Assembly (NCBI GenBank): GCA_008632985.1
Contig: QPGO01000015.1
Span: 745,998 to 809,997, forward strand
Reading direction: 5' to 3'
DNA length: 64,000 nt
From: Psammoneis japonica
Taxonomy: Eukaryota
Below the pieces are notes generated by a model, which saw only the letters and a program-made list of their open reading frames with translations, was not told where the DNA came from and made no database searches. Positions 29,209-56,849 of the stretch are shown here, piece by piece. Both the position numbers and the translations under genes were made by a program. How positions within the stretch are numbered: position 1 is the stretch's first letter; the number at the start of each line of letters is the position of its first letter.

Positions 29209-29314
29209 GCAGATCTTGTTTGCAAAGAGCATCGTGCGGTTCTTGAAAATAGACCATGGAAACTGTAGCAGTATTTCATGGATCAAACCACTGGTGCTGG
29301 TTTTGTTTTCCCAG

Positions 29315-30279: not shown

Positions 30280-30618
30280 GTTTGAAAGGCGGGATGCCGA
30301 TTGCCGAGGAAAGAATGAGAAAATTTGGAGTAGGAGTAGTTGTGAGACCTTCGAAGCGATCGAGCGGCGGCGTGTGAGAAAAGGCGCGCCCGAAACATAC
30401 AGCGAAAACACCAATGACGTCAGCGAGGATTGGATCGTCGAATACTGTAATCATCAATCCAGAATGCGCTGATGGATGTCCAGACACCAGACAATATTGG
30501 AATCACCATGATGTAGTGTCCTGTGTCCGCGATGATTGTCTTCATCTCCAAGGTGCCAGTCGCTAGAGGAGAGACACTCTAGAGTAGAGAGTAGACTTCA
30601 CCGAGCGCAACAACCAGG

Positions 30619-31524: not shown

Positions 31525-31621
31525 CGGGTGCGATACCCTTCCTCTATGATTTTTGTGGGGCAGACATGGCAACCACAGTAGGAAACGTCGTAGTCTAAGT
31601 CCTTTCAAGTAAGATCTATGA

Positions 31622-33621: not shown

Positions 33622-33972
33622 GCTTTGAGTGTCATGGGCAAAGTACCGCCGGGACAAGGGACAAGTACCATCGTCTTGTTTTCTTTGTTGTTTTCGTGCC
33701 GTGTGCCGTGCTGCGGCTCGCGCGAGCTCGCGCGACATTGAAAGATTTATTGTGTTGTCAGCAAGAAAATCACACATGGTTTCCGACTCTCACTCGTTTT
33801 CAAATTTGAAAGTGACTGCGTGAACTCGCGACTTCGCTTCGACACATTCGACAACAAAATGGCGCAAGACACAACGGTCGACATTACAAAGCCGCCGTTC
33901 AATTTCCTTGTCCGAAATAAAACAATGGGCAGCGGCAAACCTTTCTAACTACATAACCTTTTGTCGATTGCT

Positions 33973-36588
33973 ATGGTACTATCGCAGAACCCACCGCCGG
34001 TCGTGCGTAATCCTTACGCAAAGCCGCCAGCAAAGCGCCAGCGACAGAACGAAAGCATCAGCCTCGGAACGGAAGGAATACCGACCATAGCGAGGAATGA
34101 AGTTGGCAATGGAACTGTATCTGTCGCATATGGAAGAAGGTGTGAAGCTTCAATTCAAAATGGGTCTTTAAAATCGGATTCCCCAGCAGTACAAGGCGCT
34201 CACGTTTCTACCATGTCGAATAATCAACATCGACTAGCCCAGATGTCAAACCCATATCGCAAATCGCCAGAAAGACCAACGCTTCCCATTCAACAGGCGC
34301 ATGATTATACATTGCCTATGAAACAGCGCGAAAATCAGGAAATGCCTCCCTCGCCCTGTCAGGAAAGCTCTACAAACCAAACAGATTTGTTTGATACAGG
34401 TTTTAACTGGGAAGCTGCTGCTGCCGAACTAAATTATGCATGTTCGCAGACAACATCATTTTCAGCTAACGGCAGCGGAGATCAAAATGATGTTTATCGC
34501 AAGTCCACGTCGACAAACGAGCTCACCAGTTGCCATAGTGACAATGTAGCTGCGCGGAGAGAAAGCACCGCACACGCCCCACCGACTTCGGTATCACGCA
34601 CAGCATCTGGTCCTTCGTTGCATGTCTCGGGACAGAGTCAAGATTCGCGACAGGTAGCATCATCTACGGCAGCGGCGCTAGGTCATGGCATTCGCCCATC
34701 GTCTTGGCTGCGATCAGGCCAACCCGCGGTCCCAGATTCGCAAGTGTCCACTACTTCATCTTTAGATCGATCAAATTTTTCAGCAGGCAGCAAGACAGGA
34801 TCGAACGCCGCTGCTTCCTCTGTCGGAAGTGGCAAGCCACAGCTCCCTCACCAGTTGAACTACTCTCCGGCAAGTGTCCTACCAGTTGCTGATGAATACC
34901 GTGGATTACTCATAAAGAATGCGGACTTATCTACGCCACTCTTGAACGGATGGACTTTGTTTCAACATCAAAAACGAGCGATATTGAAAGGTCTGGTTAT
35001 GAGACGTGTGATACTAGCTTTGGATATGGGATTAGGGAAAACATGCATTGGCTGTGTTTGGTCGAAAGCATTCTACAAAACTTTTCCGGACCTAAGGATA
35101 TACGTCATCTGCCCTGTGTCTTTAAAGAAGGAGTGGAAGCGTACAGCTGTCGAAGCTGTAGGGCTTGAAGCAACAGAGGATGAGATGAAAGACGGCGAAA
35201 GTGGGATGCAAGTCTGCAGCTGGTCCAAGGTTCCTTCGATCAAATCCACTAAAGATTTTAAATTTATCATTGTGTGTGATGAAGCTCATTCAATGCAGTC
35301 CATGCAATCAGCAAGAACAAAGAATGCTCTTCAGCTAGCATCCTCAAGACGGTAAGCACGATTACCTTGTGGTTGGCCATTCGACATAATTTTTCCTTTC
35401 CGCTAATTCGTTCTGCTCTTTATCAGGTGCTTGGGCGTCCTACTTTTAACGGGGACTCCAATGAAAAACGGAAAGCCATTAAACCTTTTTCCATTGCTGA
35501 AAGCAGTCCGTCACCCTTTTGGGTATAACCAAAAGGCCTATGAGATTCATTTTTGTGAAGGCAGGGAGAAATCCTTTGGGAGAGGCCGCTCGATCTGGGA
35601 CGCCAACGGCGCTTCCAATCTACCACTGCTACGGGCGCACATATCAAGCCATTTATTGCACATGACAAAAGAAGACTGCCTCAAAGATTTGCCTCCGCAG
35701 ACACGAGTTTTCCATAAGATACCTGTGAGCAGTCGATATCAGCTTAGACACGACGATGCCCTCAAGGACTTGGTAAGTATCCCACACAATTAGCTGAAAT
35801 GACTTTCTTTATTTGCTTCTTGCAGAAGTAGCTGATTTGCCCCCCTGTCGTATTCCTTGGAAGGCTCGATTGTATCAGAACAGTCAGAATTTCGAGAATA
35901 GCTGTGATGTTATTCTCACCGCCGTTCAAAGAGTTCGGAAGATTGGTTCTGAGTCGAAGATTGATTCAACTGTTGCTCTCGCAAAATCTGTATTGGAGGA
36001 GGAGCCGGCGGTTGTTATCTTTACTAGTTTTGTAGGGGTTGCACAGTCGGTCCACAAGAGATTAGGAGAGCTTGGTTGGTCGGGAGAACTTTTGACTGGA
36101 GAAACAGCTCAGAATAAACGACAAGCAATGGTTGACAACTTTCAGGTATGTCACTCATGTATCTTCCAACCTATCATTTCACTACTATGAGGCCTCGTTC
36201 ATTGTCGGAGGAAGCTGATCCCTCCATATCTCTTGTCTTCGTAGGCCGGAATGTCGTCTGTGTTTGTTTGTACTTTTGGTGCCGGTGGTGTTGGATTGAC
36301 ACTGACAGCGGCACACACGGTCATCTTATTGGATCGCCCATGGACTCCAGGAGATGCATCACAAGCGGAAGACAGAGTCAGAAGAATTGGGCAGACCAAA
36401 CCCGTCAAGAGCATTTGGGTAGTAGCGTTTGATCTGGATGAACAAATTGACTCGGTGTTGGAGCAGAAAAGCCAGAACGCCAGCACTGTCTTGACTCAGG
36501 AGGAGGTGATGATTCAGGGACTGTCGTTGACTCGGCTCCAAAAATATCTATTTTTCGACTACTCAAGTCTGTCTTGCCGCGCTTTTAA
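33973..36588 (+). CDS. SNF2-family helicase, SMARCAL1/HARP-like (multi-exon)
   Basis: Motifs ALDMGLGKT, VCDEAH, LLTGTP, GAGGVGLTLTAA and PWTPGDASQAEDRVRRIGQ. Long disordered N-terminus with NPY motifs. Confidence 0.88.
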
Positions 36589-36666
36589 ATGGTGTCGACC
36601 TGTCAGAAAGCAATTCATAATACATTATTTTTAAATAATACACCAAGCCCTTATCGTCTTTGCTAC

Positions 36667-37344
36667 TTAAGTTGAAGCTTCGTCTCCATCCAACTGGACT
36701 GTTTCGCCGGAAAACATCCCACCGAATAGTCCTCCTTTCTTTTCTTCTTTCGGTTTCGCCTCGGTGTCGGTTTCCAGTATTTTGCTTCCGATGTTTTTGA
36801 ACGCATTCAAAACATCACCGGGAGTGAGCGGCTTTTCTTCTTCGACTTCAATGCTGACCGGCGATTCGTAGTTTTCATCCATAATGACAACATCGTCGTC
36901 ATTAAAATCTTGTTTATCGTCATCAGAATTCATGTTGTCAAGGATTGTGTAGAGACTGCTAACGGGACCGCGGTAAAGTTGCAACTCTAATTCACCTTGA
37001 GCATCAACCAACATTGACATTACCGTATCGAAGCTTTCTCCCACCACCATTTCACCGTTTATGGCTACCAGATTATCACCCAAACGCAATCCTGCTCTAC
37101 CTCCATTGAGTCCTTCCGACACATCATCCACTACGAGGCCAAAGAATGGTTCTGGGTTCTCCCCAAAAACGACGCCAAGTGGCTTCTCGACCACCGTGGT
37201 GTAACCAACACCTTCAAAGTAGCTGAAACGACTTGAGAACAATCTCGTCGCGGGTTGAAAGGCGCTGGGAACAACGAACCCGTGTGTTTCAATCAACAAG
37301 GCGAAAGCTGCGATAGCAAGGATCAATCGCGTAGTCATCGTCAT
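36667..37344 (-). CDS. Plastid-targeted PDZ-domain protein
   Basis: Presequence MTMTTRLILAIAAFALLIETHGF. PDZ core EKPLGVVFGE...GGRAGLRLGDNLVAINGE...FDTVM. Confidence 0.8.
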   Translation of the reverse strand: MTMTTRLILAIAAFALLIETHGFVVPSAFQPATRLFSSRFSYFEGVGYTTVVEKPLGVVFGENPEPFFGLVVDDVSEGLNGGRAGLRLGDNLVAINGEMVVGESFDTVMSMLVDAQGELELQLYRGPVSSLYTILDNMNSDDDKQDFNDDDVVIMDENYESPVSIEVEEEKPLTPGDVLNAFKNIGSKILETDTEAKPKEEKKGGLFGGMFSGETVQLDGDEAST

Positions 37345-37831
37345 GGTGACACGAACGAGAAAAAACAAAAAGATATTCCGCGACTTCAACGTGCTTCCGC
37401 GCGCATGTTGAAAGGCAATCGAATGAATCAAACTTGAGCACGCACGGACGCACGGACCGATCACGCGGATAGCACTACTCGTACTCGCACTCGATCGAAA
37501 ACCACGAAACTGGCAGTCGACCATGCTCGTCTCCTGTCTTCTGCGGTTTATTTCATACTGTATTGCATGCTCTGCCTTTCACGGCCCCGTTGACTGAGTA
37601 GTCTGTTGAACAAAGATGAATCATCAGAAAGGAATGTGGGAAGGCCTTGGTGGTCCGGTCAACACAACGCGACCGAATTTTGATGACATTGATCCAACTC
37701 TTGCTGCTTGTTGTCGTCGCGAGGTATGTTACAATGTTGCGTGTTGACTGAGTGTGACGTAGTTTGTGTAAGCCGTTGCTTCTCGAACATGGCATGCAGA
37801 CTTACACTTGTGCCTTGTAAATGGCCCATAG

Positions 37832-38878
37832 GTGGAGTCGAACCGTCAGAGATCAGCGTTGGAAGGGACGCTCCGTCGTCATGATGTCGTAGCCCAGGCA
37901 GAACGTCGTAGGCGGCATTTGATTCAGAACCTTAGTTGGGGTTCGGGATGTCGATGTTGCTACGACCCAAACAGCGACGGGGGCGAATATCGAGCCTTGA
38001 TCGAAGCTCGTGAAAAGCAACGTCAAAGTGCTGTTGATGAGAAGGAACAAGACGATCAAGAGAATGATCACGTAGAAGAGACCGAGGAGAGCGATTCGGA
38101 GGATGAGTTTGATTACCTATTAGACGAGGATTTTCCCACCGCGGACAACGATAACGACAACAGTGCCCTGAAGGAAATCGAGGATCGTCGACGAGCTGAG
38201 CTGGAAATGTTGGCCTTTCATCAAGAAGCGTCTGTCCAGCATGGTTATGGCGCTCACCGACAGATGCATCCGTCTCGTATTTTGCGTGCAGCAGGATTGG
38301 GAGCTCAGACAAAGGGCGGCCTGGCTGCGCCTCCTCCCGGGGTGGTCTTGCACTTGGTTGATCCTGATTCTTTGCTCTCGGCTGAAGTGGACCTTTACCT
38401 TGAAAAGCTTGCCACTGGCTATCGTGGAACAAAGTTCTTAAGAAGCGATGGACGTGCTACTCTCCTTATGGATGCAGACGGTGCTCAGAAACACCTGCCG
38501 CGCCTCAGCCCTGACAAGGACATGCCCACTCTTGTAGCTATTCGCGATGGTGCCGTCGTTGCAACTTGCCCGGGGCTCTCTGGTCTCGTAGATACGAGTG
38601 CTTGTCGGCTAGAAACGTTGGCGGTCAAGGACTGGTTGGACCACGCCGGTGTTCTCATCAGTCGTCCTCCTCCCATGGAGGAATTGTGTCGTATTCGTCC
38701 TGAAGAGATGGCGCTATATGACTTTTTGCCTCAGAGCAACCCTAAGGAAAACGAATTGGAGGAGCGATATGATTGCGGGATGTGTGGTTGCAACAAAACG
38801 TTTCCTCACGATCACATCGGGATAAAAACGGATCAGCAAAATGGACTGGTGGTGCAGGAAGAACATGTAGTGACTTAA
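37832..38878 (+). CDS. Phosducin-like / thioredoxin-fold protein; start uncertain
   Basis: Acidic DEFDYLLDED...IEDRRRAEL, then HGYG and VVLHLVDPDS...YLEKLATGYRGTKFLR...PTLVAIRDGAVV. Cys/His-rich ends. Confidence 0.7.
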   Translation: MESNRQRSALEGTLRRHDVVAQAERRRRHLIQNLSWGSGCRCCYDPNSDGGEYRALIEAREKQRQSAVDEKEQDDQENDHVEETEESDSEDEFDYLLDEDFPTADNDNDNSALKEIEDRRRAELEMLAFHQEASVQHGYGAHRQMHPSRILRAAGLGAQTKGGLAAPPPGVVLHLVDPDSLLSAEVDLYLEKLATGYRGTKFLRSDGRATLLMDADGAQKHLPRLSPDKDMPTLVAIRDGAVVATCPGLSGLVDTSACRLETLAVKDWLDHAGVLISRPPPMEELCRIRPEEMALYDFLPQSNPKENELEERYDCGMCGCNKTFPHDHIGIKTDQQNGLVVQEEHVVT

Positions 38879-39069
38879 AAATTTAGGCGGGTTGAAACAA
38901 CTGTAGTTCACTTCTCCTGTTGGTATTGGATGTTCACGTCTGCTTGCTAGCGTAGGCTCGTTGTCATTGGTCCTCCTCGTCGCTAAGCACGTTGCTTCGG
39001 AGTGGGCACTTCGACGTCCCTGTATCAGTACGCTCCACTCAACTTTTTGGATATATAGTGTTCTTTCAA

Positions 39070-40540
39070 TCACCAGAATTCTCGCTCACGTCTCTTTTTT
39101 CTTCTAGCGGATTTGATTTTATTCTTGTAAGCTTGAAATGACTCGTCAGAATGTCTCTTCGACTTACGTCGACCTCCCTCACTCACGTTTTCGGCTGTTT
39201 CGTCTTGCGGAATATCCCACAAGACCGCCAATTCTCTTGCCATCTGCCTTGCCTTGGAGCGGTCACCCTCAAAGACTCCCATACTCACAGCTGGAAGCTC
39301 AAATATGGGCTTTTCCATCGATGTTTCCTCGTCCAATGTAATGACGTATTCTCGCAGTGGCGATGATAATTCGGTGTCCTCCTGCCAAAGGCAAATAGAG
39401 TTATCCTCTACGTAATCGTTACGAAGTTCCATTCCGGCTTGGGTTGCAGCAGTCAGAATATCCTTCCTCCACGACAGAAGAAAGTCGTCCATGGACCTGA
39501 GGTTATCATTGAGTAAACCGCCGATGCGTAGAGGTGAGAGGTCCACAATGACATTGTCCAAGGCTCTACCACCCGTTGCCTTGCACAAAATGACCTGCGG
39601 TCTTGCATGGTCATCACACCATTGCCGATGTCTTGTTGCCAATGCAGAGCCTTTACGACCACGCCGATATCCCGTCCCATTAAGCTCGACATAACCACGA
39701 CGGACGGCACGGTCCATAGATTGCTGTTCTTTCTCATTAAGACGAATACTTCTGTTGGTATCGTGTGCCTTGTGCTTGTGACTGGGATGCTTTCGATGCT
39801 TCTTGATGCGCTTGTTTTTCACTATTCGTTCCGAAGAGGTCCGTCGCATCGTGTTGGTCTTTCCATCACGAGTTCTTTTAGCTTCTCCGCAGGCATAAAG
39901 AACCATTCGTTCCGGAACACGCACCCTATTAAAGGTGGGATCAACCTTGATGCTCTCTACTTTGATTCGTTTGCCATGCAACATCGACCCATGAAATCTA
40001 AGAATGGCAGCCTGAGGCAAGTTTACAAATTGCAGTGTGAGAGACAGATGTTGATAAAAAAGGAAATTATCTCAATCTTCAAGCTGGTACCTCTTTTTCT
40101 TGGATGGTTGGGAAAGTTACAAAGCCGTAGTGAAGCGAATTTGTGTTGGGTTTTCGTGCTACACATGCAGGAACGGAGTTCAAAGTACTGACAGCTTGGA
40201 ACAGGTCGGATAAAATGTCGTCATTGACAAATTCACACAGGTTTCCTACAAACACCGTTGTAGGAACCATGCTGTCGGGAAGCGGGACCATTTCGTATCG
40301 TTCACCTCCCACCATCATTTCAATAAAATCGGCGTCTCGAATTTGAGACACTTTGAGTTCGGAAGAAGTATCACAGCGCCTGAATCGCCCATGTTCTTGT
40401 TGATGGAGCTCTGGCGAACTTCGGGAGGCATTCTTGCGACAACAACTCGTTATTCTCATCAACTTAAAGGCGGCAGGCTGAAACCCGGTGACTGCACTAA
40501 AAACGCCGAGAGAGACGTAAATCAACAGCAAAACAACCAT
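39070..40540 (-). CDS. Organelle-targeted RRM RNA-binding protein (2 exons)
   Basis: Signal MVVLLLIYVSLGVFSAVTGF. RNP2 VFVGNL and RNP1 HYGFVTF. Exon 2 AAILRFHGSMLHGKRIKVE completes the RRM. Confidence 0.8.
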
Positions 40541-42706
40541 GGCAGTCGACACACTGTTGCAAAAGATCTTTGTGGTTGAAGAACTCCAATGACCAAGTGT
40601 ACTGTGCCCTCTGACGTGAATCTTGGGCCGAATTTGGCATCTCCGAAAAGAGACGGGAATGCGACACGAGACACGAGACACGAGAAACAACTGGTTCAAG
40701 CTTTGGTTAGCGGTGCGTGGCGGCGTGGTGTGCGATGGCGACTGGTGGGAATTCTGAATTCTGCGCCTGCCAAATTCGTGTAGAATTCTACGCAAGCCAG
40801 CAGCGCTGCGCCAAAATTTCAAAATTCTGCATGTGCGCGCCGATGCGATGCGTCGCGCGTGACCACCACCACGGCGCCCATGTCTGCCCGCCTCCCGCCA
40901 TCAAGAGAATGGAGAGTGCACAGTGGGGCAGGGCCTCCACCCTCTTCAGTCGAGGCCCGCCTGCCACTTCCAAGAGGCTGCGACTTGCTTCTCCGCTTGG
41001 CCGATGCCTCAAGGAACTCTTTTCTGAAAAAACCTTTGACACTTTACATGGTGATGTCAATCTTTGCACACATGGTGTTTTGTCCCTCCCAACATGACTC
41101 TGTGCATCAAACCTTCAACACCCAGTTTTCAGAATTTGGCTCAGAATTTGGGTCGACACTTGAGTGCTGGCACACTGCAGAGACTTTTTCCAACGATGGA
41201 ATTTGGCTGAATGACAGAAATTGTCCTTTTCATCATCAAAAAGCAGCAGCAAAAGTGCGGTGTGTGTGTGCACAGAGTCAGCTGTCACAGCTGCGCGGCT
41301 GAACACAAGCCAGCTGGCTGTGAGGTCAAAGTGCAGGGGGGCCGGACTTTGTGAGCCAAGCAGAAAACTGAAGATCCCAGTCAGAAATGGGGGGGGGGCA
41401 GCAGAAGGAAGTGCAAAGGCAGCTGTCAAAGTGGAGGGACAGAAGGGGCACATGATGCGGCGCAGCCACACATGAGCTGAAGAGCTTGAACTGAAAGATG
41501 ATGCAAGACGATGCAGCCCAGCATTTGGGTGGCCCACTGACAGAAAGCAGAGGAGTGATGGGTGCTGCCACAAAGTGGTCATTGGCGGATGGTTCCGGGC
41601 AAAGTTAGTGGAAAGAAAAGGGGAAGAAGCGGGGCAGGTGAGGGCACACACGCACGAGGGCAAACAGAGCTGGAGGCACCAGGGCTGTGAAGAGTGGAGG
41701 GAGACTGCCAGGAAGGCTTGGGTTGGGAGCAAGTGGCAGCAAATGAGGAGCCAAGAAAGAAGCAGCAGAAAAGAAGCCAAGAACTGCGCAAGTGGTTGAC
41801 AGCAAAAGGGAGAGGAAAGACCCTGTCAAGGCCTGTGTTCCAGCTCCAGGTGCTCCGCTTTTCATCACGCTAGATTTTCTGCGCAGTTTTCAGCACCAGA
41901 CATTTTTGTCTCCACCCGGCAGAGCTCGCACTTTTTGGCTTTATGCAAACATTGATTGTTTTGATGATGCAACACATTTGTGACATCAACGCTCATGCAC
42001 AACAACTGAGGTGCATGATGCGTCACAGGAAGAATCGTGTCAGTTGGCATTTAATGTTTTTCTGGTGATGCGCAGAACAATGCTGACTTCTACGAACACG
42101 TGCCATCCACCCAACACACACCAGCCACAATGCAGCACACTGCTGTCACCGCTCCACAACCCCCTCTTTGCCCTTGCAATTGCATGGAACCGTCTGTTCC
42201 TTTCATTTCAAAGTTACACCATTGTTGTCATCGCAATGCGATTGCGGCTCTAAAGAGTTGCTGTCATTGCGGATGACACCATCTCTTTGTGTTCTCTCAT
42301 TTCGAATTCGGCAAGTCGTTCCATCATGTTTTTTTTTTGCGCATCACCACGCGCGTGCATTTTTCTGGTTGCTTCTCACGTGTTGTTTTATGGTTGTTTT
42401 GCACCAGGGCCTTCGGAATTTCTACAAAACTCAAGTGTTTGCCCGAGCGTTCTCCGAGTGACAGTTTCTACTGGAACAAACTTGTCTTGGTTTGTTTTCA
42501 CTGTGGCACTTGCTGTTTGCACTTTTCAGCATCTGGAGCTGCCCCAGAGGCTGCCTCTGTTCATCCGCATCACTTTCGCGGCAACTGACGTTGGCCCCCT
42601 CTCTGGAGTGCATTTGTCACACAAGCGGGAGTGCAGCTTGCTGTTTGATGCTTTTCAGCATCTGGAACTGCCTTAGAGGCTGCCTCTGTTCATCCGTGTC
42701 ACTTTT

Positions 42707-45700
42707 GTGGCAACAGATGTTGGCCCCCTCTCTGGAGTGCATTTGTCGTACAAACAGGAGTGCAAAAGCAGTGCACTCACCATGGACACGTTGGCCAAAG
42801 TAGCCTCCCAGCAGCATCCCGTTGGTGGCAGTTCCCCTCAAGCAAACGATGACTCTTCCAGCATGTTGAAGGTTTCCTTTTGCATCCAGCGTCACGTCGA
42901 GGCACTCACGGAACATTGTCCACCGCAGGGTAAAGCCAAAACTTGGCACACTGTGCCTCTCCAAGATGCAGTTGACCCCCTTGAGTGCCCTCAAGGTCTT
43001 GTGTGTTTGAGCATCTTGACCACAGAAGATCGTGGAACAAAGAAGACGAGCCCTCTCTTTCATGTTCTTCATCACAAGAATGGTTTGGATGGGTTCAACA
43101 GTGTCAAAACATGGAGCACACTCCGCAACACTGTTGTCGATTGGTTTTGTGAAAAATTTAACTCCAAGAATCGACCGCAACCAAACCAGTGCATCAAGGA
43201 CAAGAACCAGCACCTCTTGATGTTGGTTGTGGTGCCATCAGGAATGTCGATGAGGGATGCCGTGAAGGACAAGCAAAATGTTGCTGCTGTTTTGATGCAC
43301 CGTGTCAAGACAAACATTGGCCTGCTTGTTGATTGTGTCCGTGTGACAGAGTCTCCGGTTGTGTCAGTTGGGACGGGCGATGAGAGTGAGTCGATCGCAC
43401 CGTTGAGTCGAGGTGTGTGTCCTTTTTTGACTGGACTTGCCCAAGCCATTTGCTGTGGTGTTGTCAAGAAGATGGATGCACACCTTCATTGTCAGAAGAC
43501 TTTGAAGTCTTGTCACATGGGAGTGATGGGTTTTGAGGACATCACAGACACCATGAGTGATCGTTCCGATCTGGCGGACGTCCGCAAGCACTGGGGCTGG
43601 GATGATCTCATGATGAATGATCGAGGCAACACTGTCGCCCTGTGTGCAAAGGAGAGGATCACTCCAATGAGCTCTGCAATTGTTTTGGCATTGCCTCGTT
43701 CCAGCGCCGAGCATCAGAATGTTGCAACAGAGATCCGCAAGGATGAAGACTGTTGGGAGGAACCGCTTGTTGAAGGAGGATGCATTGCTGATCATTCGTG
43801 CATTGCCAAGCGCCGATTCCACTTGGCATCTTTGGTCAACATTCAAAACCTAGAAACACACGATGATGAAAAGCTGATCAAAGATTTAAAGATGCATGAG
43901 TGGCTGCCTTTTGGCGAGGTCATGTTTCAAAGTTGGTGGCAAGTTGAGTCTCCAAAGGGGGTGACGAACAATTTTGAAATGTTGGCTTTGAAGGGGTTGG
44001 ACGTCAAGTTCAAATGTGAAACAAGACACCCCGTTCTATCTGCAAAACAGCGCTGGGGTTCAATCTGCAACCATCGCTCTGTTCCAAACGAAATCGCTCA
44101 GAGGAAGCAGGTGGATGAAAAGCCACTTCGAAAACCATGCATCAGCCACAAGAAGTTTAAGAAGCCCATTGTGGATCACAGCGATGATTGTGTTTTTCAT
44201 GACGAGCATTGCAAAAGGGAGAAGCTTGAACAGTCGGATGACAACATGCAGGAAGATCCCTGCATTCCCGAACTTCCCACCAACGCACCACACAAAGTGC
44301 TCATGAGTTGCACGAGTGGCTGCCGGAGGATTTTCTTTATTTGGGCCATTCAACACCAATGACAGACTGCCATCTGAGGCCTTGTTTAACATCGTTGTAG
44401 GTTGGTGGTACAACCATGCATTGCGGATTGCCTCTGATGGTGAATGCAGAGGCACCACTTGTCCGCCGGACCAGTGGTGCAAGCCTTTCAAGCCGCAACG
44501 ATGCTCCGAGTCAGTGGAGGCCATCACCAAAGACAAACACATGGTTGAAGTTCACTTCCCTGCCAGACCAAGCAGGAAGGAATGTTTCAAAGAGCCGCTT
44601 GCTCACCTTGCTGATTCGTGCAAGGCAGCTCCTGGACTTGCATGGTGCAAGTTTTGCAGAAGGATTCGTTGCCATCGTTGCATGCATCATGCCAGTGCCC
44701 GTGATGCAGGGTTGAAGGAAGAGGTGGAGGAGGAGGAAGAGGAAGAGGGGAAGGAGGGCACTGAAGAGACGGATGACCTGCAAAAGGCCGAGGCTGGCAC
44801 TGCAAGGTTGCAACTGCGAGACAAAAAACCAGGAGGAGGAAGATGGGGCCATGGATCAATTGCCTGAGGAAGAGGAGGAAGATGGGGCGATGGATCAATC
44901 ACCTGAGGAAGAGGAGGAAGATGACGGTGTGCAAGACGAAATCCAGGAGGAGCAAGATCCAGAGGAAACTGAGGACAAGGAGGACGATGAATGCAAGGAA
45001 GAAGTTTCTGTGGCTGCAGAAGAGAAGAGGGAGAAAGCCAAGACTGCCAAAGAGAAGAGGGAGAAAGCCAAGGCAGCTGAAGAGAAGAGGGAGAAAGCCA
45101 AGGCTGCAAGAGACAAGAGGGAGAAAGCCCCGGCTGCAGAAGAGAAGCGGGAGACAGTGGGAGATGCTGGATGCAGACATGCGCATCAGACCTTGAAAGA
45201 AATGGCTGGAGTGCGTGAGGATGAGGATCTCATTGGCCTTTGCAGCTCTGTCCCGAAACCAAGGCCAAAAGGAGACACTTCATGGCGTCGGTTGACCAAA
45301 GTGCAGTGACACCAACAAGAAAGGGATCGACTCAAGCGTGAGTGCAAAGATGCTCAAGTGATGTTCTTGCAGGTTAAAAAACTCATTTGGATTGATCCAA
45401 GCAAATGGAACAGCAGGCGTCAGCATCCTGGCGATTCCAAAGGAGCCGTTCCTCACTTGTTTGGTTGCTTTGAAGGGAAAAACAAGGGCGTCATGTTGTG
45501 GGAACCATGGTTTGACTTGCAATGCAATGAAATGAACGGCCATCCCATGAACACATGTGCGGGCCTCATTTTACGTGCCAAACACAAACCAAACATTCCC
45601 CAGCAACTCAATCGAAAATGCAGGGACGAGATTAAGAACAAGGTGGAATCGATTTGCAACCCACCACAGATTGCCAAACTAAAGAGATTGGCTGAAGCGG

Positions 45701-46940
45701 AGATTCAAAAACTTCCAAATTATGGGCGGGGAGCTGACTTCATTGGTTGCAGCTTGGAGGGGAACTGTCCCATGCATGCAACCCTAGATTGAGCTGAGTG
45801 AAATTTCAAGTTTTGGTTTCCAGATGTGTGGAAAGATTTGAAAGAATTGAAGCCATCGGATGGTTGTCGCTCCTTGCCGGAAGGAAACGTGTTGATGCCA
45901 TCAAACAGCAACTTGCCAACGAGCAAGTCCACCCGTGAAATTCCTGCAAGGACAAAACGACACTTGCATTTTTTCCTCCCTGGCCAGTGTTCTTGATCAT
46001 GCTGGCAACGTGGAAATGAGAGACCACATTGCTTCTCACATTCAAACATCCACCAACTGTGCTGACACCAACAACAAGCGCAAGTTGTTTGCAAAGAACA
46101 TGTTGAACGGTCATTTGAAGGGAAAATTCCCACCTGAGAACTCAAACATGAAGTTTTGCGGCAGTGTGGATCGAACGATTTCCCTTGCAGCAGGTGGTGA
46201 ATTTGACGTGACGACCTGCAATGATGACTTCATAACTTTGTGCAACATGCAGCTGCTGATGAGAGTCAATGTGTCACGGCGACGTGCCACAGCCTTTGAA
46301 TGTCACAAAGGGCGTGACAAAAATAACCTTTTGTCTGCATGCATGCTGCATTGTGAATTCACAGCGGAGTGGTTCATCGCAACCATTGGGCAGGAGGCCA
46401 GGGGTTCGAAACCCTGAGTGGGAGTTGTCTGCAGCAACGTTGATCACTGTCGAACACGTAAAACTCTGTGCAGTTCTGTGTGTTCCTTCGTGCGCACCCA
46501 CACTGTTCCGCCAAAACCATGCAGTGTCAGCACACATCAGTGAAGAGCCGCACGGACGCGTGACACATGGGGAGGAGTGCAACACACAGCTGCTGACAAG
46601 AGCCAATGCATCACGACGACGTGTTGCAGCCTTTAAATGTCACAAAGGGCGTGACAAAAACAACCTTTTGTCTGCATGCATGCTGCATTTGTGCCGTCTT
46701 GTGAACAACCACTGCACTGCCTTGCACCGTGGATGGATCTTTGATTCCAGCCACCCTTTTGCATTGCCAGCAAAGGACATTGAGTGTTTCAATTGGTGTC
46801 TTGGGAACGAGGAACATGAGGTGAAACACGTGGCGAAAAAGCATCTGCAACAAGTGCTCGTGGTGCACCAGTTCGAACTTCCTGGGGCGGTGCAGCAGAA
46901 GTTGTGTGCAAAAAGGAAAGCTTTTGTGTTGGATGGTTGA
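42707..46940 (+). pseudogene. Second (cargo) ORF of the transposon, broken: GNAT-like segment, acidic/charged repeats and a C-terminal papain-like Cys-His-Asp segment
   Basis: LLVDCVRVTE...SRGVCPFLTGLAQAI...AHLHCQKTLKSCHMGVMGF; EEEEEDGAMDQ and EEKREKAKAA repeats; QGQNDTCIFSSLASVL...NNHCTALHRGWIFDSS. Domain calls are by eye. Confidence 0.55.
46241..46687 (+). mobile_element. TRIM (miniature LTR retroelement), 447 bp, with a tRNA-like internal segment
   Basis: 110 bp TG...CA LTRs at 46241-46350 and 46578-46687. PPT ggggaggag at 46569-46577. TSD tttg. Removing it restores the host frame FITLC-RLVNNHC. Confidence 0.9.
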
Positions 46941-46963
46941 TCCAGTTGCACAACATTGCCACC

Positions 46964-49900
46964 TCATTTGTCCAAATTGTCACTGTCACTGTCCCCTGCT
47001 GCACTCTCATCATCCTCCACAGTGTCTTCCATGTCGTCATTCTCTCCCCCCCACTCACCAGCTTCGATGTCTTGTTTGTCCACCTCGTCCAAACAGTCCT
47101 CAAAATGGCCCATTGCCTCCCGCTGTCGGACGGCATCCAGAACTCCTTCATGCTCGTCATCGCTCAAATGACATGGTTGAAGAAGTGAAGCCTCATTCCT
47201 GTTGCACGTGCTTGGCAGCACCAGATTGGCTGATGGCTCATTGAGCTCAATGTTGGCAACCGCAATTTGCTTGAGCAACACTCTTGTCTCACATTCCTCA
47301 GCATCACCGGGAGTGTGCCATCCTCTGGCCCGTGGAACAGGGTTGAGATGCGCTCCCTTGCAAACCCATTCACTGGCCTCAACAATCATGGGCAGGTCAA
47401 ACTCTTTCCAAACCTCGTCCTCCTGTGCTTTGTGGGGGAGTTCATCCCATTGCAGCAGATGGGGTCCCTCCTCAGATTCACAAGACAATGCGGCACAGCT
47501 GTTTGGAACAATTTCCTTGGCCATTTCCTCAGTCAGGAAGTCCAACACAGATTTGTGAACCAGCTGCACCTCGTCGGCGTCACTCTCATCTGTTTGAATC
47601 ACCTGACGCACTTGCCAATCATTCAGTCCCTCAAAGATGGGCCACAGTTTGCAAGCTCGGTTGCCACCTGCATGTGTCATGGCTGCTCTGTTGGCTCGAC
47701 ATTTTTAACCCAAGGCCATTTCAGCTGATCCAGGCAGGCTTCACAAGCACAAGGAATTCTTGCATCGCAACCCAACCAATGGGGAAAAGAGGTTCAAATC
47801 GGAAATGGCACAAGGCTCCAATGCCACAATGGCGCATGCACACTTGCACCAATCCAATCAACTTGACTTTGATTGAAGAGCCAAGAACTTCGTCAGCTTC
47901 CTGCAGATGACACACCCTTTGCATTGGCTTTTGAAGGGATTCCCTCTTGGCATGTTTTCTGTCACCAACTGCGCCGAAAGCATTCTTGTTCTTTGCAACT
48001 GTTTTGCAACATTCCTTTGCATGACTGTGCGCGGCTGCAACACTGTTGTCATCCATGACCAAAGCTTCAGGTCTAATTTTCCCATCCTTGTCATTGACTC
48101 CTGCAACAGTTGTGGGCTGCATTTCTCAATGTGCGAGTGATTTGATGCAGGCTCCAATGCCATCAACCTCTCCTTTGACATGTCCAGGTGCTCCAATGGC
48201 GCGGTCAAACACAATGTTGCATTTGTGCGCAAAGACAGACAACAAGTGCAGTGCCAAAGCACATCGGCATTGTTTGGCACAACCATCAGTGTGATCCCAA
48301 ATCACAAGCCATGCCTCACACAGGTTGCGGTTTTTTAACCAGGTGACAAACTTTTCCAAGTGAGCATTGGTGGTGGTGGCATCTTGCTTGGAAGAGTCAG
48401 AGAGATGCGCATGATGTGTTTTCTGAAGCTCGTTGTCAACCATTGCATCGCAAACTCTTCCTTCGATTGACAATGTTTGGTTGTTGCCACAATGGTCACC
48501 CTGAACTTGGTTGTTGAACTCTGCCTTCTGACGCTCGGAGCAGTCATGAGACGTGAACAGGCTGTTGGGTGTTGACTCAAATGCTTTGCGACGCATTTCC
48601 ATGCAACAATTTTTCCCAAGAATGACCGTGTGGGGAAGGTGGCAGCGGAGCTTCTCTAAACTTGGAATGCAGTGCTCTTTCACAAAGACACCGACTGGTT
48701 TTTGGAACCTTGTCAACAAGGTCCTGCGTTTCACCTTTGCATCCTTGTTCCCATCTGGATCTGCCTCACAAACAGGACATGCTTCCATGTGCACACCATG
48801 CTTGGAACAACTTTTTGCAGTCAAGCAACATTGAAACAAAACTTGGGGTGCACTGGGACTTTCATTCTGTTCCAACAATGGAGTTGGATGGGATGGGCAA
48901 TGCTCGCATTCACCCAAAACGCGTTTCCAATGAGGATGATCATGACCATTGACATTGCCACAAATGATGGTTGCAACTGCATCTCGGGCTTTAGGATGAA
49001 GGTGATGGCCGTTGGGGCCAAAAGCTTCCTCTTGACAGACACGCATTGTTTCCTCCAATTTGCCAAGGGCACTGTCATGGTTCTCCAAGTTCTCAGGATC
49101 CTTGCTCGCAAGCTTCAACCAATTTTGCTCCACCTCCATCTCTTTTAAAAGTTTCCTTTGAAACCTGTTCAATGCATCTTGCAGAAAATTGGCGTTGGTG
49201 CAATCGCTGCATTGACACATGCTGTGTTGACTTGCGTTCATTTTTCGACACTGCTTGGGAGTCAAAAATCGAAACATCGTGTCGCCAAGGAGGGTCTTGC
49301 CATTGGTGTCACGCGCGTGTTCGAATCCGCCAACAGACACAGGCTTCAACATGTTGTTGTGCAGCTCACGCATGGACACATTGCGCAACCATTTGTTCAC
49401 TCGTTTCTTGTTTCCATCTTCATCTTTAATGAGAATCATGTCTCGTGTGTTGGGAGACTGCACCATGTCGGGATGATTTGACAACCAGTGCACAAATGCC
49501 TTTCAGATCTCAGGGGAAACTTTGTGAGGACGCTGACGGGGTTGCACTGAAGACCACATGACATCGTCAGTGTTTGAAATCAATGCCTCTCTGGCAATCT
49601 TTCCCTTCTTCATTTGGCAACAAACAGTGCTCCATTTCAGGCCAAGTGCCTTGGCGCAGTCATGGGAAGACAACTTTTCCTCTTCAGCAGATTTTTCTGG
49701 TGAACCGGAGATTCCAGTTGCAAGAGCACGGACAAACAATTTTTTGTCGTCGGTGAGGTGTTGACCATTGCTGGTGTCATTGGCACGTGCCCACATTTTG
49801 CCCAACTGCTCGGCAATTTGCAAGGCCACAGAATTTGTTTTCGGCAATGTCAAATTGCAAGCCTGAAGAAATGGGGCCATTTCGGGAAAATGCAAAGCAC

Positions 49901-50762
49901 ACACAAATGCACAGATTTGTTGTTCTTGAGTGGCGGCGCAAGACAACACTCCTTCTCTCACTTTGACCGCTGCACGACAAAGTGCCTGTTGGGGATCTTT
50001 GTGGGTTGCTTCAAATGCATGAGGATCAAAAGTGGGGCAACCTTGGGAGGCGGTGAGGTTGACAGCAGTTCGGTTGGCTGAAGCGACAGAGGGAGTGACG
50101 GTGGCATTGTCAGAGTCAGGGTTGGAGGGAGTGGCGGCCGCTCCTGCAGCAAGCATTTGGGAGGGGCCTGGCTGTCTTGGCAAGGACGACCCTGGACAAT
50201 GAGTGGGGTGTTCCTTGGAGGTGTTCGGGTTGAAAGCAGCCAGGTCAGTGGGAGCAACGGAGGGAGTGACGGCGGCATTGTCAGAGTCAGGGTTGGAGGG
50301 AGTGGCGGCCGCTCCTGCAGTGTGCATTTGGGAGGGGCCTGGCGGTCTTGGCAAGGACGACACTGGACAATGAGTGAGGTGTTCTGTGGAGGGGTTTGGG
50401 TTGAAAGCAGCCAGGTCGGTGGGAGCAACGGAGGGAGTGATGGAGGCAGCAGAGCTCGGATTGTTCGGATTGAAGGGAGTGGCTGCAGCTGCTTCAGCTG
50501 CAGCAACGACATGGTCGGAGACCATGGAGTGTGTTTCAAGCTCACGATGAGGCTTCTTGTTTTTGCTGTTGCCAGTCCCTGACTTGTGTCGATGGCCAAC
50601 TCCATTTTGCTTCTTCCTCTTGCTGCCCACGATGCACTGGAAATTTGATTGAAAGTGTGCATTGAGAGGGCTGGTGGATGAGACGGATGGCAAGTCGAGA
50701 GGACACATTTTTTTGGTGTGCTCAATCAAATTCACTGCATTGTGTCTGTAGAAATGAGGCAT
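46964..50762 (-). pseudogene. Degenerate Sola-like transposase
   Basis: Colinear ORFs split by in-frame TGA and one frameshift. Motifs HDCSE...QVQGDHCG, HLSDSSKQD, DHTDGCAKQCR and GAPGHVKGEVDGIGA. Confidence 0.75.
50085..50450. repeat. 180 bp (60 aa) tandem repeat in the transposase N-terminus
   Basis: TPSVAPTDLAAFNPN...PGPSQM..AGAAATPSNPDSDNA repeated about twice. Confidence 0.85.
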
Positions 50763-52223
50763 GTTCGGACGTCAGTTGAGTTGAAGAAGACCAAACACAC
50801 GAGCTCCGAAAAATGTAAAGTGAGTGATCACGAGCATTTTTCACGTGGAATGGGACACCAGCCGAAAATCACATTTGGCACAATTAAGTCCTTCATTTTT
50901 GATCATTTCGAAAATCGAAAGGTGAGTGTGCACCCGAAAACACATGTAAAGTGCACACTTGCCATTCGATTTGGCAAAAAACGGATTTTGAAAAAGTCAT
51001 TTGCGCTGAACCTAAAAGGCCAATGATGGGAATCGAACCCACTCGGAGCACCTGGAGCTGGAACAGGCCTCAAGAGAAAGTGCGGCGATCCCCACAGGCG
51101 CCATCAAAGACAGCATGGCCACAGTGGCAGGGGGAGAGCCAGTTGAGCAGGAAGAAAGGGTGGCAATGGCATGGATGTCAGAAGCAAGGAAGGTGGAAGA
51201 AGAGTGTGATGGGATGAGAGGGAGTGAAGGGAGAGGCTTGCAAGGGGAGAGAGGAGGAAAGAGAAACTGAGTGTCAGAGGGAGTGCCGTCCGGGAGGGCA
51301 GAAGCAGCGAAGATCTGGTGATGATCATGGCAGAGACCAAGGCGGGCAAGACAGAAGGTTGACAGGGAAGCAGTGGAGGTTGCAGAGTCGGGGTCAAGGA
51401 TGGAAGCAAAGGGGTGAAAGAGATGCCACATTGGCCCCAAAAATGGCCCCTGCACGCGTCTTGCTTTTGCCGGCACTGTTCAGCAGACCACCGGTGCTGC
51501 CACTCTCTAGAGTGGAGAGTGGCCACTAGAGAGCAAGTACGGTAGAGCTCTAGCAGAATAGAGACTACGAGATGTTTTATCACTTCATGAGCGTTGCGTC
51601 TTACAGTCCCTACATCGAGTGCCAGCAGCCCCTTCACGCCGCCGGTGCCGAAACAGATCACTTCATAAAACATGTTATTCCTACAAGCTTACTGCTTCTC
51701 GTACCGACCCCAGTAGCATTCTACGTTACATACCAGAATTTTTAATTATTTATTTAGTCATTCATATATCATTTTATGAATTGACAACCACCGATTTTTG
51801 GCACGCGACACCACCACGATGACACGTTCCGTCGAACGAGTTCGGGCCCACTCGGAATAATTACCAAGCCATTTGGGTACAGCTATATCAATGAGGTACT
51901 TGCGGATCATATATGTCTCATTGGCTTGGTAATTCTTTGTGGTTGACAAATAAACGACGGCAAAGGATTCACGTGTTGTTTTGTCGTGCTTTGGCGTCAA
52001 GAGCCAGGTTAGTCGAGTTAATCCCAGTAGAAAACCTACGTAGGCCTACTCTGAGCCACAAGCGCGCGTAATAAGCTTGTATCCGATGGCACTAACTGAC
52101 GAGCTTGCTAATGAACAGATATTGCAACTGACAGAACAAAATGAGAGAATCATAATTGAATGCCTAGATTAATTATGACTGCTGGAAACTTCCAACCTTG
52201 AGGCCACGGAGGAACGAACCAAG

Positions 52224-54381
<2,158 letters not shown>

Positions 54382-55219
54382 GATGAAAAAGCTTGTTTAC
54401 AAATGCGGTAGGGCCCTACGTCGCAAATTGGGCTGCACCGAATTTTATGAGAGAACCAAGCCGCGAGTGAAGTTGACGAACGTCCCGCAGAAATCGAATG
54501 GCATCTTCTGCGTTTCGCGTAGCGTTTGTACCAGCGTTTACGCAGAAAGACTCGCGGAAGCTGAATACCAACAAGCGTGTGTAATCTACATACGATCAGC
54601 TTGGTATTAGTCCCTGTACCTACAGTACCGTATGATACACAGTACGTATGTAGCGTAGCTCGAGTGCGATCTGGTCGTGAATGCCAAACCGAATTAACGG
54701 TAAAATGCCCTGTACATTTCTACGTCATTGTACTGCAGAATTATATGATTCCTCTATCCATGAACATATTTATCCATGACGAAATTTTTAAAAAGTTGCG
54801 CCATTGCCATCTTGGGGGGCGTCTTTGGAAGTGAGATCGTCGAAGGCGGTCTGATCGCCAGTGCGTTGGGGGTTTTCCAGTACAATTTGTACGCACAAGA
54901 AACACGTAGGATCTGTCCAGGTCCCAATACCCAATCGCACTGATTGACAGACTGTTTTAGTACAAATTCTACGTAACTTTCTTCGACAGTCTCACTTCCG
55001 AAGACGTCCCCCAATCTGCCTGTGGTATTTGTGGTACAGTATTTAGAAGTATTATGCTGAAAGCGAAGGAAGGCTGTTGAAAATTTGACAAGGGGTGATT
55101 GGCAGTTGCAAGATTGAAGGTGGGCTTGCTTCCGTTTGTTGGGACGTAAAACGACAACGTGAACGTCGAAGGATCAACAAGAATTCAATGAAAATGGCGT
55201 GAAAAATGATGGAACCAAC

Positions 55220-56202
55220 ATGATTGAACGTGGCTTGGAATCATACATCAGGTCTTGTCTGTTCTGTTGTCGTTTTTTCTTCCTGTTGGTGTGCTGTAAT
55301 GTCTCATCGGCACTATCCCTTGCCCTAGCCGAACGTCGTTTATTGGTATTGGGTCTCGGGCCTGTAGGCCAAGCCGTGGCTAGTCAAGCGTTGCATTCAG
55401 AAGACAAGGACATCCGAAAAGACTTTGAAGAAGTGTTCGGGACTGTCCGTGCTCCACAAGAAGATACGGGAGATCTTCGAAAGATATTGTTCTCACGACA
55501 TAAAATTCGCCAAATTCTGCCTCTCTGCACTCACGTGTTAATCACCATTCCACCCCAGCTCAACGATTTGTGCCTAGGGGCTGTCTACACAGATATGGAG
55601 GAACTTCTAGGTCGAAATGCATGGGTTGGATTTGTGTCTACAAGCGGTGTGTATGGCAATCATGATGGGGCCTGGGTAACCGAGGAATCTCCCTTGCCGT
55701 GCGGAGAGAATACGCAGGCTGCGACATATCGGGACGCAGAAGATGCGTGGCGACGACGAGCTGCAGCTAATGGATGGACCTTTTCTGTTTTTCGGTGTGC
55801 TGGAATTTATGGTCCTCAACGATCAGCCTTGCACACCGTGTACAAGAAGGGATACAACCCAGAAAACGCGCCACCTTCAAAGGAAGGCGTGACGAATCGA
55901 ATTCACGAGGTTGACGTTGCCCGTGCCATCGTATCAGCAATGAAACATTGTGATTCCTCACGTACTGGCGATCACCGTGTCTTCAACCTCTGCGACAATG
56001 AACCAGCACCTCGATCGAAGGTGATGCAACACGCTTCACACGTACTGCGCGGTCATGGGATCTCCATTAATACCAACATAAAGATTCTCCACTGACTGAA
56101 CGCTCGAGACGACGAAGCGCAGATATGAAACGAGTTTCGAACCGACGCATGCATACAGAGCTGCTGGATGATGATGGTGGGCTGAAGTTCGATCCTGAAT
56201 GA
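55220..56202 (+). CDS. NAD(P)-dependent epimerase/dehydratase (YeeZ-like atypical SDR) with an apparent frameshift near 56090
   Basis: Motifs VLGLGPVG, FVSTSGVYGNHDGAWVTEES, FRCAGIYGP, NRIHEVDVA and FNLCDNEP. KRVSNRRM follows in another frame. Confidence 0.82.
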
Positions 56203-56849
56203 CTCTGCGACACCATGGTCAGTCATCAAGTAAATTGGTTCGAACAGCAATTCTGTTGGTAGGACCAGTGTGTTGGGATTTTGGCTATCTTTCTATTTCT
56301 TTTACCAGTGTTGTCGCAAATAAAAATTGAAACGCCTTAAAGTCCTTGAGGTCCTTCGTCATTATCATTGCTTTTCTCTGTTTTCGAATCATGCCTATAG
56401 TCACAACCTTCTCAGGAATATCAGGGACCACTGCCTTTGACACCTTCTGGTTGAGAAGAAGCTCCGCAGCAACTGCGAAATCAAAGATGCTATTAGCGCT
56501 CCGCCTGATTCGCTCGTTTCATGTACTTAGTCTTGAATTCTCGGCCGCAACTCGAAGCAAATCGCGAAGAAAGTCTTTCTGTTGGAGAGCCGAGTGTGTG
56601 AGACAAGAATTCAAATGCATTAGAATGCACCAGTGTGCGACGGTGCGTACGATGAATGGAATCCTAACAGGTCTCACCTGGGTCCTTTGCCGCCCGTTTT
56701 GGAAGCCATGTCGTTGTCATGTTTTCTACTGCCTCGACTCCAACCCCAGGGAGATAGACCAAAATTTGGTGTGGGAAGTCACTCGAAGTGACAAGCATTC
56801 CACCACCTTGCAGAGGCAATTCTGCCATCTTAGCTTGTTCAAACTGAGA

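Follow-up and report, generated by a model that had tools for sequence, protein, structure and literature searches.

Twin long terminal repeats in a TA-erased block of a Psammoneis japonica contig and a candidate TpA-directed mutation process in a diatom

According to the available text of a recent preprint, two integrated viral regions in mutation-accumulation lines of the chlorarachniophyte alga Bigelowiella natans mutate at about 1000 times the rate seen elsewhere in the genome, and 230 of the 231 changes were A>G or T>C, all of those on TpA, which becomes TpG or CpA depending on the strand (Mettrop et al., bioRxiv 10.64898/2026.01.13.699255). The same text describes the larger region as single-copy and silent, reports that windows poor in TpA and rich in CpA and TpG are clustered in the genome and that the footprint is also present in genes with DDE and reverse-transcriptase domains, and proposes an ADAT-like adenine deaminase as the enzyme. 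The present analysis concerns a stretch of 64,000 nucleotides from the diatom Psammoneis japonica (assembly GCA_008632985.1, contig QPGO01000015.1, positions 745,998 to 809,997 of the forward strand), called here the window, and a small element within it that is bounded by two long terminal repeats (LTRs) and resembles a terminal-repeat retrotransposon in miniature (TRIM).

Three other mutational systems and one class of elements are relevant for comparison. Repeat-induced point mutation (RIP), known from Neurospora and other ascomycetes, changes CpA to TpA and leaves DNA enriched in TA. The decay of methylated CpG leaves TG in one copy and CA in the other at the former CG sites of repeat families. 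Editing of an RNA or cDNA intermediate by ADAR or APOBEC enzymes affects a single strand, and both LTRs receive the same edits. TRIMs and Cassandra elements, finally, are tiny non-autonomous LTR elements. In the window, the existence of a broad process that erases TA is close to certain, and most or all of the four TG/CA sites that separate the two LTRs were probably TA dinucleotides resolved on opposite strands after integration.

Sister LTRs, TA-erased blocks and an outgroup-polarised pseudogene

A pair of direct repeats, 46240-46352 and 46577-46689, with 88% identity, was recovered by independent repeat detection in the window. When trimmed to TG...CA, the repeats gave two LTRs of 110 bp each, 46241-46350 and 46578-46687, which enclose a non-coding element of 447 bp with the LTR ends TGCAAC...TGCA. 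Its parts were the following:

46237..46240, + strand: left target-site duplication (TSD), TTTG, with the same four bases at the right end
46241..46350, + strand: 5' LTR (LTR1), 110 bp, with doublets TG, TG, TG and CA, TG at 46297-8 and TA at 46324-5
46351..46577, + strand: internal part, 227 bp, non-coding
46569..46577, + strand: polypurine tract of 9 purines, adjoining the 3' LTR
46578..46687, + strand: 3' LTR (LTR2), 110 bp, with doublets CA, CA, CA and TG, TA at 46634-5 and CA at 46661-2
46688..46691, + strand: right TSD, TTTG, matching the left copy

Evidence on the insertion and its family came from contigs of X1 and X3, two public sequencing runs apparently of the same organism, and the family tables used below were made from contigs at least 80% alike. 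In two X1 contigs, 46236 is followed directly by 46688, the 451 bases between them being absent and seven bases fitting either side; these contigs represent paralogues of the flanking sequence. Since a 4-bp TSD and such empty-site paralogues point to one clean insertion, the LTRs are sisters of one another. With 1278 X1 contigs lying on it and a summed depth of up to 334,491, against 1,172-3,500 in the flanks, the element is very abundant. Thus TG...CA LTRs, a TSD, a polypurine tract, small size, lack of coding capacity and many copies were all found, as in a TRIM. No further TRIM copies were found within the window, and exact scans of metagenome, genome and viral contig collections with the 23-base conserved LTR core gave 0 matches each.

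The gap-free alignment of LTR1 with LTR2 contained 13 mismatches, all 13 of them transitions. Eight of these form four doublets that read TG in one LTR and CA in the other, and two more lie at sites where one LTR still reads TA:

46248-9 (LTR1, TG) against 46585-6 (LTR2, CA): TG/CA doublet 1
46260-1 (LTR1, TG) against 46597-8 (LTR2, CA): TG/CA doublet 2
46272-3 (LTR1, TG) against 46609-10 (LTR2, CA): TG/CA doublet 3
46288-9 (LTR1, CA) against 46625-6 (LTR2, TG): TG/CA doublet 4
46297-8 (LTR1, TG) against 46634-5 (LTR2, TA): half-resolved site TG/TA
46324-5 (LTR1, TA) against 46661-2 (LTR2, CA): half-resolved site TA/CA
46266, 46279 and 46287: the remaining three LTR transitions, none of the three within a pyrimidine-purine (YpR) step

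Both orientations, TG and CA, were thus present within each LTR. The CpGs at 46277, 46280, 46283 and 46313 and their counterparts at 46614, 46617, 46620 and 46650 were unchanged in both LTRs (0/8 changed, with four intact and no half-decayed pairs). When 13 random transitions were placed on either LTR, four TG/CA doublets arose in 8.5e-5 and 5.5e-5 of 200,000 trials, or about 7 in 100,000. The A at 46616 in LTR2 is private to the window copy, and the family carries G there in 124397.8 of 124428.5 depth. An earlier sequence-only reading of this DNA had listed two 110-bp LTRs with 13 transitions, four TG/CA doublets, one TA/TG and one TA/CA site and four intact CpGs, and every one of these figures was exact.

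The composition of the window was bimodal, with gene islands alternating with blocks from which TA has almost vanished, and the element lies in the second of these blocks:

1-11500, 28501-40500 and 51501-56500: gene islands; per kb, TA 42.3, CG 56.9, TG 70.4, CA 70.6, YpR 240.1
11501-28500: block A; per kb, TA 2.2, CG 8.5, TG 111.2, CA 116.9, YpR 238.8
40501-51500: block B, which houses the element; per kb, TA 4.6, CG 33.9, TG 99.5, CA 97.8, YpR 235.9
57001-64000: block C; per kb, TA 2.3, CG 5.3, TG 116.6, CA 116.9, YpR 241.0

The YpR total stayed constant at 236-241 per kb, and TG and CA gained what TA and CG lost: together they rose from 141 per kb in the islands to 197-233 in the blocks, both by equal amounts. 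Relative to the islands, block B has lost 89% of its TA and 40% of its CG; TA loss across the blocks was 89-95%, and CG loss in blocks A and C was 85-91%. The observed/expected ratios for the whole window were 0.31 for TA and 0.58 for CG. Bins of 500 bp held 0-7 TA in the blocks (up to 8 in bins spanning an edge) and 12-40 in the islands. The block edges were sharp to about 100 bp, with TA back at 28504 and 51508; the segment 51014-51507 has zero TA and is followed by eight TA within 70 bp. The edges fall at 11.47-11.69, 28.45-28.50, 40.5-41.0, 51.0-51.5 and 56.83 kb. The GC content was 0.46-0.50 in the blocks and 0.475 in the islands.

The direction of the change could be read from a pseudogene that ends about 300 bp from the element:

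47000..50390, - strand: pseudogene of a family of proteins of about 1150 aa that has no Pfam name (tblastn, 8 full-length relatives)

A full HMMER search with a 458-aa part of it (open reading frame, ORF, 48129-49502) returned 1058 relatives at E<=1e-3, and the family is probably that of a transposase. Conserved columns were defined by at least 60% agreement among 24 relatives. Not one of 15 conserved Tyr codons (TAY) was kept, 8 having become Cys (TGY), 6 His (CAY) and 1 Pro (CCC). Conserved Cys, in contrast to Tyr, was kept at 17 of 18 positions (one changed to Arg, none to His), conserved His at 9 of 10 (one to Leu, none to Cys) and conserved Trp at 7 of 7, so that the conserved Cys and His codons (TGY/CAY) had flipped in 0 of 28 cases. 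Alignment against each single relative gave the same picture, with none of the 17-29 aligned Tyr kept. Judged against these relatives, TA in block B has changed to TG or CA on either strand, and the original TG and CA steps have not flipped.

Origin of the four TG/CA doublets

The LTR pair contains four intact CpGs, no half-decayed CpG, no intact TA, two half-resolved TA sites and four doublets. Under a Poisson model that assigns each dinucleotide a single loss probability and all CpGs the same rate, the maximum-likelihood losses per LTR were about 0.87 for TA and about 0 for CG, and the likelihood ratio was about 3000 for an origin of the doublets from TA only over an origin from CG only. With the island densities as prior, TA was expected to account for 0.92 of the doublets, and the probability that all four came from TA was 0.79. 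A TA ancestry would make the ancestral LTR resemble untouched genome DNA in its content of TA and CG; a CG ancestry would leave one or two TA beside at least ten CG in 110 bp.

Additional evidence came from the family of the element. Among the rows listed for X1 contigs, the changed places comprised 51 transitions and five transversions, and TG/CA doublets were found at 11 places, the internal part included:

46352/3, 46387/8, 46479/80, 46491/2, 46541/2 and 46551/2: family doublets in the internal part

Because these six lie in the internal part, the ambiguity of mapping between the two LTRs is irrelevant to them. The difference between the rows within a doublet corresponds to TA-bearing minus CG-bearing copies, and TA exceeded CG at all 11 doublets when depth was counted (sign test, p 0.001) and at 10 of them when contigs were (p 0.012). 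At the LTR doublets 46597/8, 46609/10 and 46625/6, CG can account for at most 8.1%, 8.7% and 6.9% of the family depth, and TA for at least 1.8%, 8.0% and 5.1%; the doublet 46585/6 has no entry among the rows listed. At 46541/2, TA reaches about 42% of the depth, and one X3 contig has TA there. True CpGs of the family are kept, with CG in 99.8%, 98.1% and 91.4% of the depth at 46456, 46519 and 46536; the window copy has private CG>CA changes at these same three internal positions, so CpG decay is non-zero.

Some observations weigh against a TA origin of the doublets. The depth majority at 46597/8, 46609/10 and 46625/6 is CA, CA and TG, that is, the state of LTR2, and TA is a minority state there with a share of only 1.8-16.7%, shares that are incomplete, as they come from listed rows, and biased, as contigs matching both LTRs were assigned to the better fit. 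The family sites 46459 and 46538 show TA and CA at about 40/60 with no TG among the rows listed, which does not match a symmetric fast process, and TA at 46634-5, in a TTAA context, is retained in nearly all of the family depth. The likelihood ratio would be weaker if CpG methylation were patchy. Finally, since block B lacks 40% of its CG, a minority of the doublets in the block must be former CpGs. For these four specific LTR sites we infer the TA state, rather than observe it.

Four rival explanations were weighed against this origin. The doublets may be former CpGs in which methylated C was deaminated on opposite strands, with the four surviving CpGs unmethylated or protected. The loss of CG from all three blocks, the private CG>CA changes in the internal part and the frequent CG/TG and CG/CA differences in a tandem pair in block B are in line with such an origin, and the TG:CA direction predicted from context does not discriminate, being equally compatible with both ancestries (r 0.62 for TA, 0.60 for CG). 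Nevertheless, the absence of any change or half-decayed pair among the eight LTR CpGs stands at about 3000:1 against it under one rate, CG lies below TA and reaches at most 6.9-8.7% at three of the four sites, and true CpGs of the family are 91-100% intact. It would also imply an LTR with one or two TA and at least 10 CG per 110 bp, against 42 TA and 57 CG per kb in untouched DNA, and is judged unlikely. A two-step flip is a shade less probable still. Here the LTR would have been inserted in resolved states like those of LTR2 (CA, CA, possibly CA, and TG), and LTR1 would have flipped stepwise from CA through TA to TG, the new TA being short-lived. At the three doublets for which rows are listed, LTR2 does match the majority of the family, and TA is very short-lived in block B. 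This route, however, needs eight hits at four dinucleotides, all in one LTR and with zero intermediates; in the neighbouring pseudogene, which is older, TGY/CAY flipped in 0 of 28 cases while TAY was lost in 15 of 15. Listed flips affect only 11 of 106 TG/CA steps, which argues for a special ancestral state at those places, and the chance that all four minority states fall in one LTR, given a difference, is 1 in 8.

Gene conversion from another family copy, replacing the 5' half of one LTR and importing the differences as polymorphisms, ranks level with the two-step flip. A further point against TA belongs here, as LTR positions 8-58 hold 12 of the 13 differences and positions 59-110 the remaining one, a pattern that a conversion tract could mimic, and both doublet states are common across a family of more than 1000 contigs. 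On the other hand, the TSD is intact and the empty site precise, and clustering is expected in any case from an LTR whose 3' half is the most conserved in the family and has few candidate TA. Conversion would moreover shift the question to the donor copy, in which the same chromosomal process would be needed. The least probable of the four, and very improbable, is an artefact in which dense base modification of silent DNA led a long-read base-caller to misread TA and CG, with TG or CA then entering the assembly at random. The extreme erasure and the sharp edges could be taken in its favour, as could the presence of only 42% of sampled 31-mers of 46100-46900 in the best run and the lack of a record of the library type and platform of the runs. 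Yet 326 X1 contigs at least 99% alike to the stretch show TG or CA, and rarely TA, at the doublets. The old repeat pairs carry many transversions (146 of 454 differences), as in real diverged DNA, doublet orientation is random along pairs (p 0.58 and 0.24), and the LTRs, 337 bp apart, lean in opposite ways, a misfit with an effect of strand coverage in long reads. The same signature was measured as true mutation in B. natans, as described in the available text of the preprint.

With these alternatives weighed, TA resolved on opposite strands remains the probable origin of most or all four doublets, and the following course is proposed. On insertion into a silent, transposon-rich block of a diatom chromosome, the 447-bp TRIM-like element would have had identical LTRs, and this block would undergo A:T>G:C hypermutation specific to TpA. 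A hit on the top-strand A of a TA would yield TG, and one on the bottom-strand A would yield CA. Each LTR would resolve its own TAs independently, so that opposite-strand hits in the two LTRs would leave a TG/CA doublet (four sites), a TA resolved in one LTR only would leave TA/TG or TA/CA (two sites), and a TA resolved identically in both would be invisible. Ordinary CpG decay would run in parallel, and its slower pace in block B would explain why the CpGs of the LTRs are still intact. The chemistry may be adenine deamination, as proposed for B. natans, with thymine oxidation as an alternative, and action on DNA after integration would follow from the logic of the sister LTRs rather than from a measured new mutation.

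The sequence-only reading had placed the process on chromosomal DNA and on both strands, and this is borne out by the sister LTRs, by both orientations within each LTR, by the hits in a pseudogene that is not a retroelement and by the sharp edges. Its claim that the TG/CA sites had once been TA gained from the excess of TA over CG in the family, the likelihood ratio and the loss of all 15 Tyr codons, and was weakened by the resolved-state majority at three sites. TA in other family copies at these places, which it had predicted, was present and outnumbered CG, but as the minority state. It had named CG in the family consensus as the contrary outcome, and the ceilings for CG given above leave no such consensus at the three sites. 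The statement that CpGs stay intact held within the LTRs and not in the internal part; likewise, TA loss does outpace CpG decay in block B, although CpG decay is not zero.

Sequence context, other repeats and neighbouring features

The survival of TA in the blocks depended strongly on its neighbours. With blocks taken as 11501-28500, 40501-51500 and 57001-63999, relative survival in blocks against islands was 0.415 for TTAA, 0.27 for CTAA/TTAG, 0.09 for CTAG, 0.004 for ATAC/GTAT and 0 for ATAT, values to be read with the proviso that the island baseline may differ from the original make-up of the blocks. A per-strand model with four parameters, in which the loss constants by 3' neighbour were 0.40 for A, 1.06 for G, 2.07 for C and 2.86 for T, fitted all 10 tetranucleotide classes, with twice the log-likelihood gain over a uniform model being 137.5 (3 df). 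Both half-resolved LTR sites are in a TAA context, the most resistant in this model, and the four doublets, if formerly TA, would have had the contexts ATAC, ATAA, GTAT and (C/T)TAC.

Outside YpR steps, 3 of 42 LTR positions differ, about 3.6% per LTR, and the TA loss of 0.87 per LTR corresponds to a rate roughly 50 times this background, with a wide error. The losses of TA and CG in block B correspond to a rate difference of about four-fold.

The same dinucleotide pattern was observed in older repeats. In 12 repeat pairs of the window, those of the ubiquitin gene excluded, 454 differences were counted, 308 transitions and 146 transversions. TG/CA was the commonest dinucleotide difference with 61 cases, followed by CG/TG plus CG/CA (27), TA/TG plus TA/CA (15), AC/GT (7) and CC/TT (7). 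A long pair in block A, 17477-18910 and 26795-28236, with 71% identity over 1.4 kb and its members about 9.3 kb apart, contains 28 TG/CA doublets, six CG/x and one TA/x. These are possibly the LTRs of a large old retroelement, and no recognisable protein domain was found between them with Pfam. In block C, the pair 58295-58647 and 62955-63303 has 17 TG/CA doublets. Runs tests gave no signal of strand coordination of doublet orientation in the repeat pairs (p 0.58, 0.24, 0.50 and 1.0), and a random orientation along the pairs is consistent with independent hits on either strand. In the pseudogene, 14 of the lost Tyr codons fall in two runs, 8 Tyr>Cys from 49037 to 47810 and then 6 Tyr>His from 47676 to 47107, an order with P of about 0.002 under the context model in a post hoc test; the switch lies close to a frameshift at about 47.7 kb. 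Unlike the random orientation in the repeat pairs, these runs hint at strand-coordinated tracts at the kb scale.

A tandemly repeated gene in an island offers a comparison:

52229-54052, - strand: polyubiquitin gene of eight 228-bp units with 89-94% inter-unit identity, in the island beside block B

The TA and CG contents of this gene are normal, and zero TG/CA doublets were seen among the eight tandem units in seven offset comparisons, a result confounded by selection on the gene.

At two block edges the two losses do not end together. Between 11468 and 11692, the last dense TA is at 11468 and CG is dense until 11618; between 40518 and 41002, TA thins from 40518 and CG is dense until 41002. 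The TA-erased domain extends beyond the CG-erased domain at both. Additionally, AT steps fall from 65.4 to about 50 per kb and GC steps rise from 56.5 to 71-76 per kb in blocks A and B, and hardly move in block C; in A and B the shift exceeds a hand estimate from TA and CG loss alone.

The internal part of the element begins with a 10-base palindrome at 46353-46362, directly after the 5' LTR. Two sense segments about 40 bases apart, 46362-46372 and 46403-46413, resemble the two internal promoter boxes of tRNA genes. ARAGORN found no tRNA in the internal part and Rfam gave no tRNA match there, ARAGORN found no tRNA genes in the 64-kb window, and the fold of the internal part was no better than that of shuffled sequences (z -0.57). 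Across the left junction, at 46216-46252, there were weak matches to C/D-box snoRNA models (best E 0.04; 23.1 bits, with the gathering score at 64), which are probably due to chance. In the same flank (46216-46236), the empty-site paralogue has TG where the window keeps TA at 46233, in an ATAA context, and the host repeat around the element is thus itself polymorphic at a TA.

As to the remaining content of the blocks, Pfam searches of 20 long ORFs and of all 119 block ORFs of at least 110 aa gave none in the blocks that reached the cut-off, and the ORF 42677-44359 had no relative in a word-indexed search; the recognisable content consists of the TRIM-like element and the transposase-like pseudogene. 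An island ORF of 579 aa (32050-33789, - strand) contains Fpg/Nei N-terminal and H2TH domains. Its relatives, at 44-55% identity, come from Cylindrotheca, Fistulifera, Nitzschia and other diatoms, which marks the source of the DNA as a diatom, and most of them also have the uracil-DNA-glycosylase domain PF03167. A base-excision-repair fusion ORF in a genome with a mutator resembling base editing may merit attention.

Relation to described systems and biological meaning

The process suggested here shares with that of B. natans, as far as the available text of the preprint describes it, A>G and T>C changes on TpA, action on both strands of chromosomal DNA, confinement to discrete regions that are silent or foreign, and depletion of TpA with a gain of CpA and TpG. 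The differences lie, to begin with, in the lineage, as B. natans is a chlorarachniophyte (Rhizaria) and P. japonica a diatom (stramenopile), and diatoms do not appear in the available preprint text. The targets in B. natans are single-copy viral insertions that keep at least half of their TpA, whereas those in the window are transposon-like repeats from which 89-95% of TA has gone. CpG is absent from the available text, and the diatom blocks also lose CG, more slowly; likewise, the preference for the 3' neighbour, T>C>G>A in the diatom blocks, does not appear there. The rate was measured in the lines of B. natans and can only be inferred in the diatom. In the literature searched, no account of TpA hypermutation in a diatom was found (including the available text of PMC9998398, 10.1101/2025.10.24.684338 and 10.1101/2025.01.10.632494), and according to PMC9998398 it is not known what the RID-related DNMT4 does in diatoms.

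The blocks resemble the products of RIP in that transition hypermutation is limited to repeats and transposons, has sharp limits and destroys the coding capacity of mobile elements. The chemistry and the footprint are nevertheless the opposite, for TA is erased and not enriched, and GC content is kept. RIP is triggered by duplication; the diatom blocks do hold repeats, the eight ubiquitin units of the island have no doublets in a comparison confounded by selection, and the larger B. natans target is, in the available text, single-copy. Decay of methylated CpG is similar in its opposite-strand hits on a self-complementary dinucleotide, and it is also present in the blocks of the window; it differs because in the LTR pair and the family CpG is the stable and TA the unstable dinucleotide. 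Like ADAR and APOBEC editing, the process at this locus leaves transitions in clusters within mobile elements and favours an A preceded by U/T. It differs from such editing in that the sister LTRs are not alike, each LTR has both orientations and a neighbouring pseudogene that is not a retroelement is affected. The element itself is like TRIMs and Cassandra in being tiny and non-coding, with TG...CA LTRs, a polypurine tract, a 4-bp TSD and a high copy number, and unlike them in the sense-oriented look-alikes of tRNA-gene boxes in its internal part.

Taken as a whole, the diatom case joins the kind described in B. natans, as known from the available text, and differs in lineage, targets, near-saturation and the accompanying slower loss of CG. 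It is possible, at somewhat less than even chances, that diatoms have a dedicated genome defence based on TpA editing, the same as that of the chlorarachniophyte or convergent with it, which turns TA into TG or CA in sharply bounded silent domains. Targeted A:T>G:C hypermutation of chromosomal DNA has a single description in the literature searched, the 2026 preprint on one alga in its available text, and a near-saturated signature in a diatom suggests that the process is not confined to one species. Beyond what composition reveals, the twin LTRs indicate that the hits came after integration, that hits on a given TA can independently fall on either strand and that in block B TA disappears much faster than CpG decays or the background changes.

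There are also practical consequences. Genomes of this kind mislead the dating of insertions by LTR divergence, the building of repeat consensus sequences, in which TG/CA alternation is usually read as former CpG, and the annotation of transposons by homology. The replacement of Tyr by Cys or His is a simple diagnostic of the process. If the proposed defence is real, TpA editing would favour TA before T or C and run at about 50 times the background, sister LTRs would serve as a built-in clock for its rate and for its order relative to the decay of methylated CpG, and a TpA-editing defence may be widespread or ancient in the lineages of the SAR group (stramenopiles, alveolates and Rhizaria).

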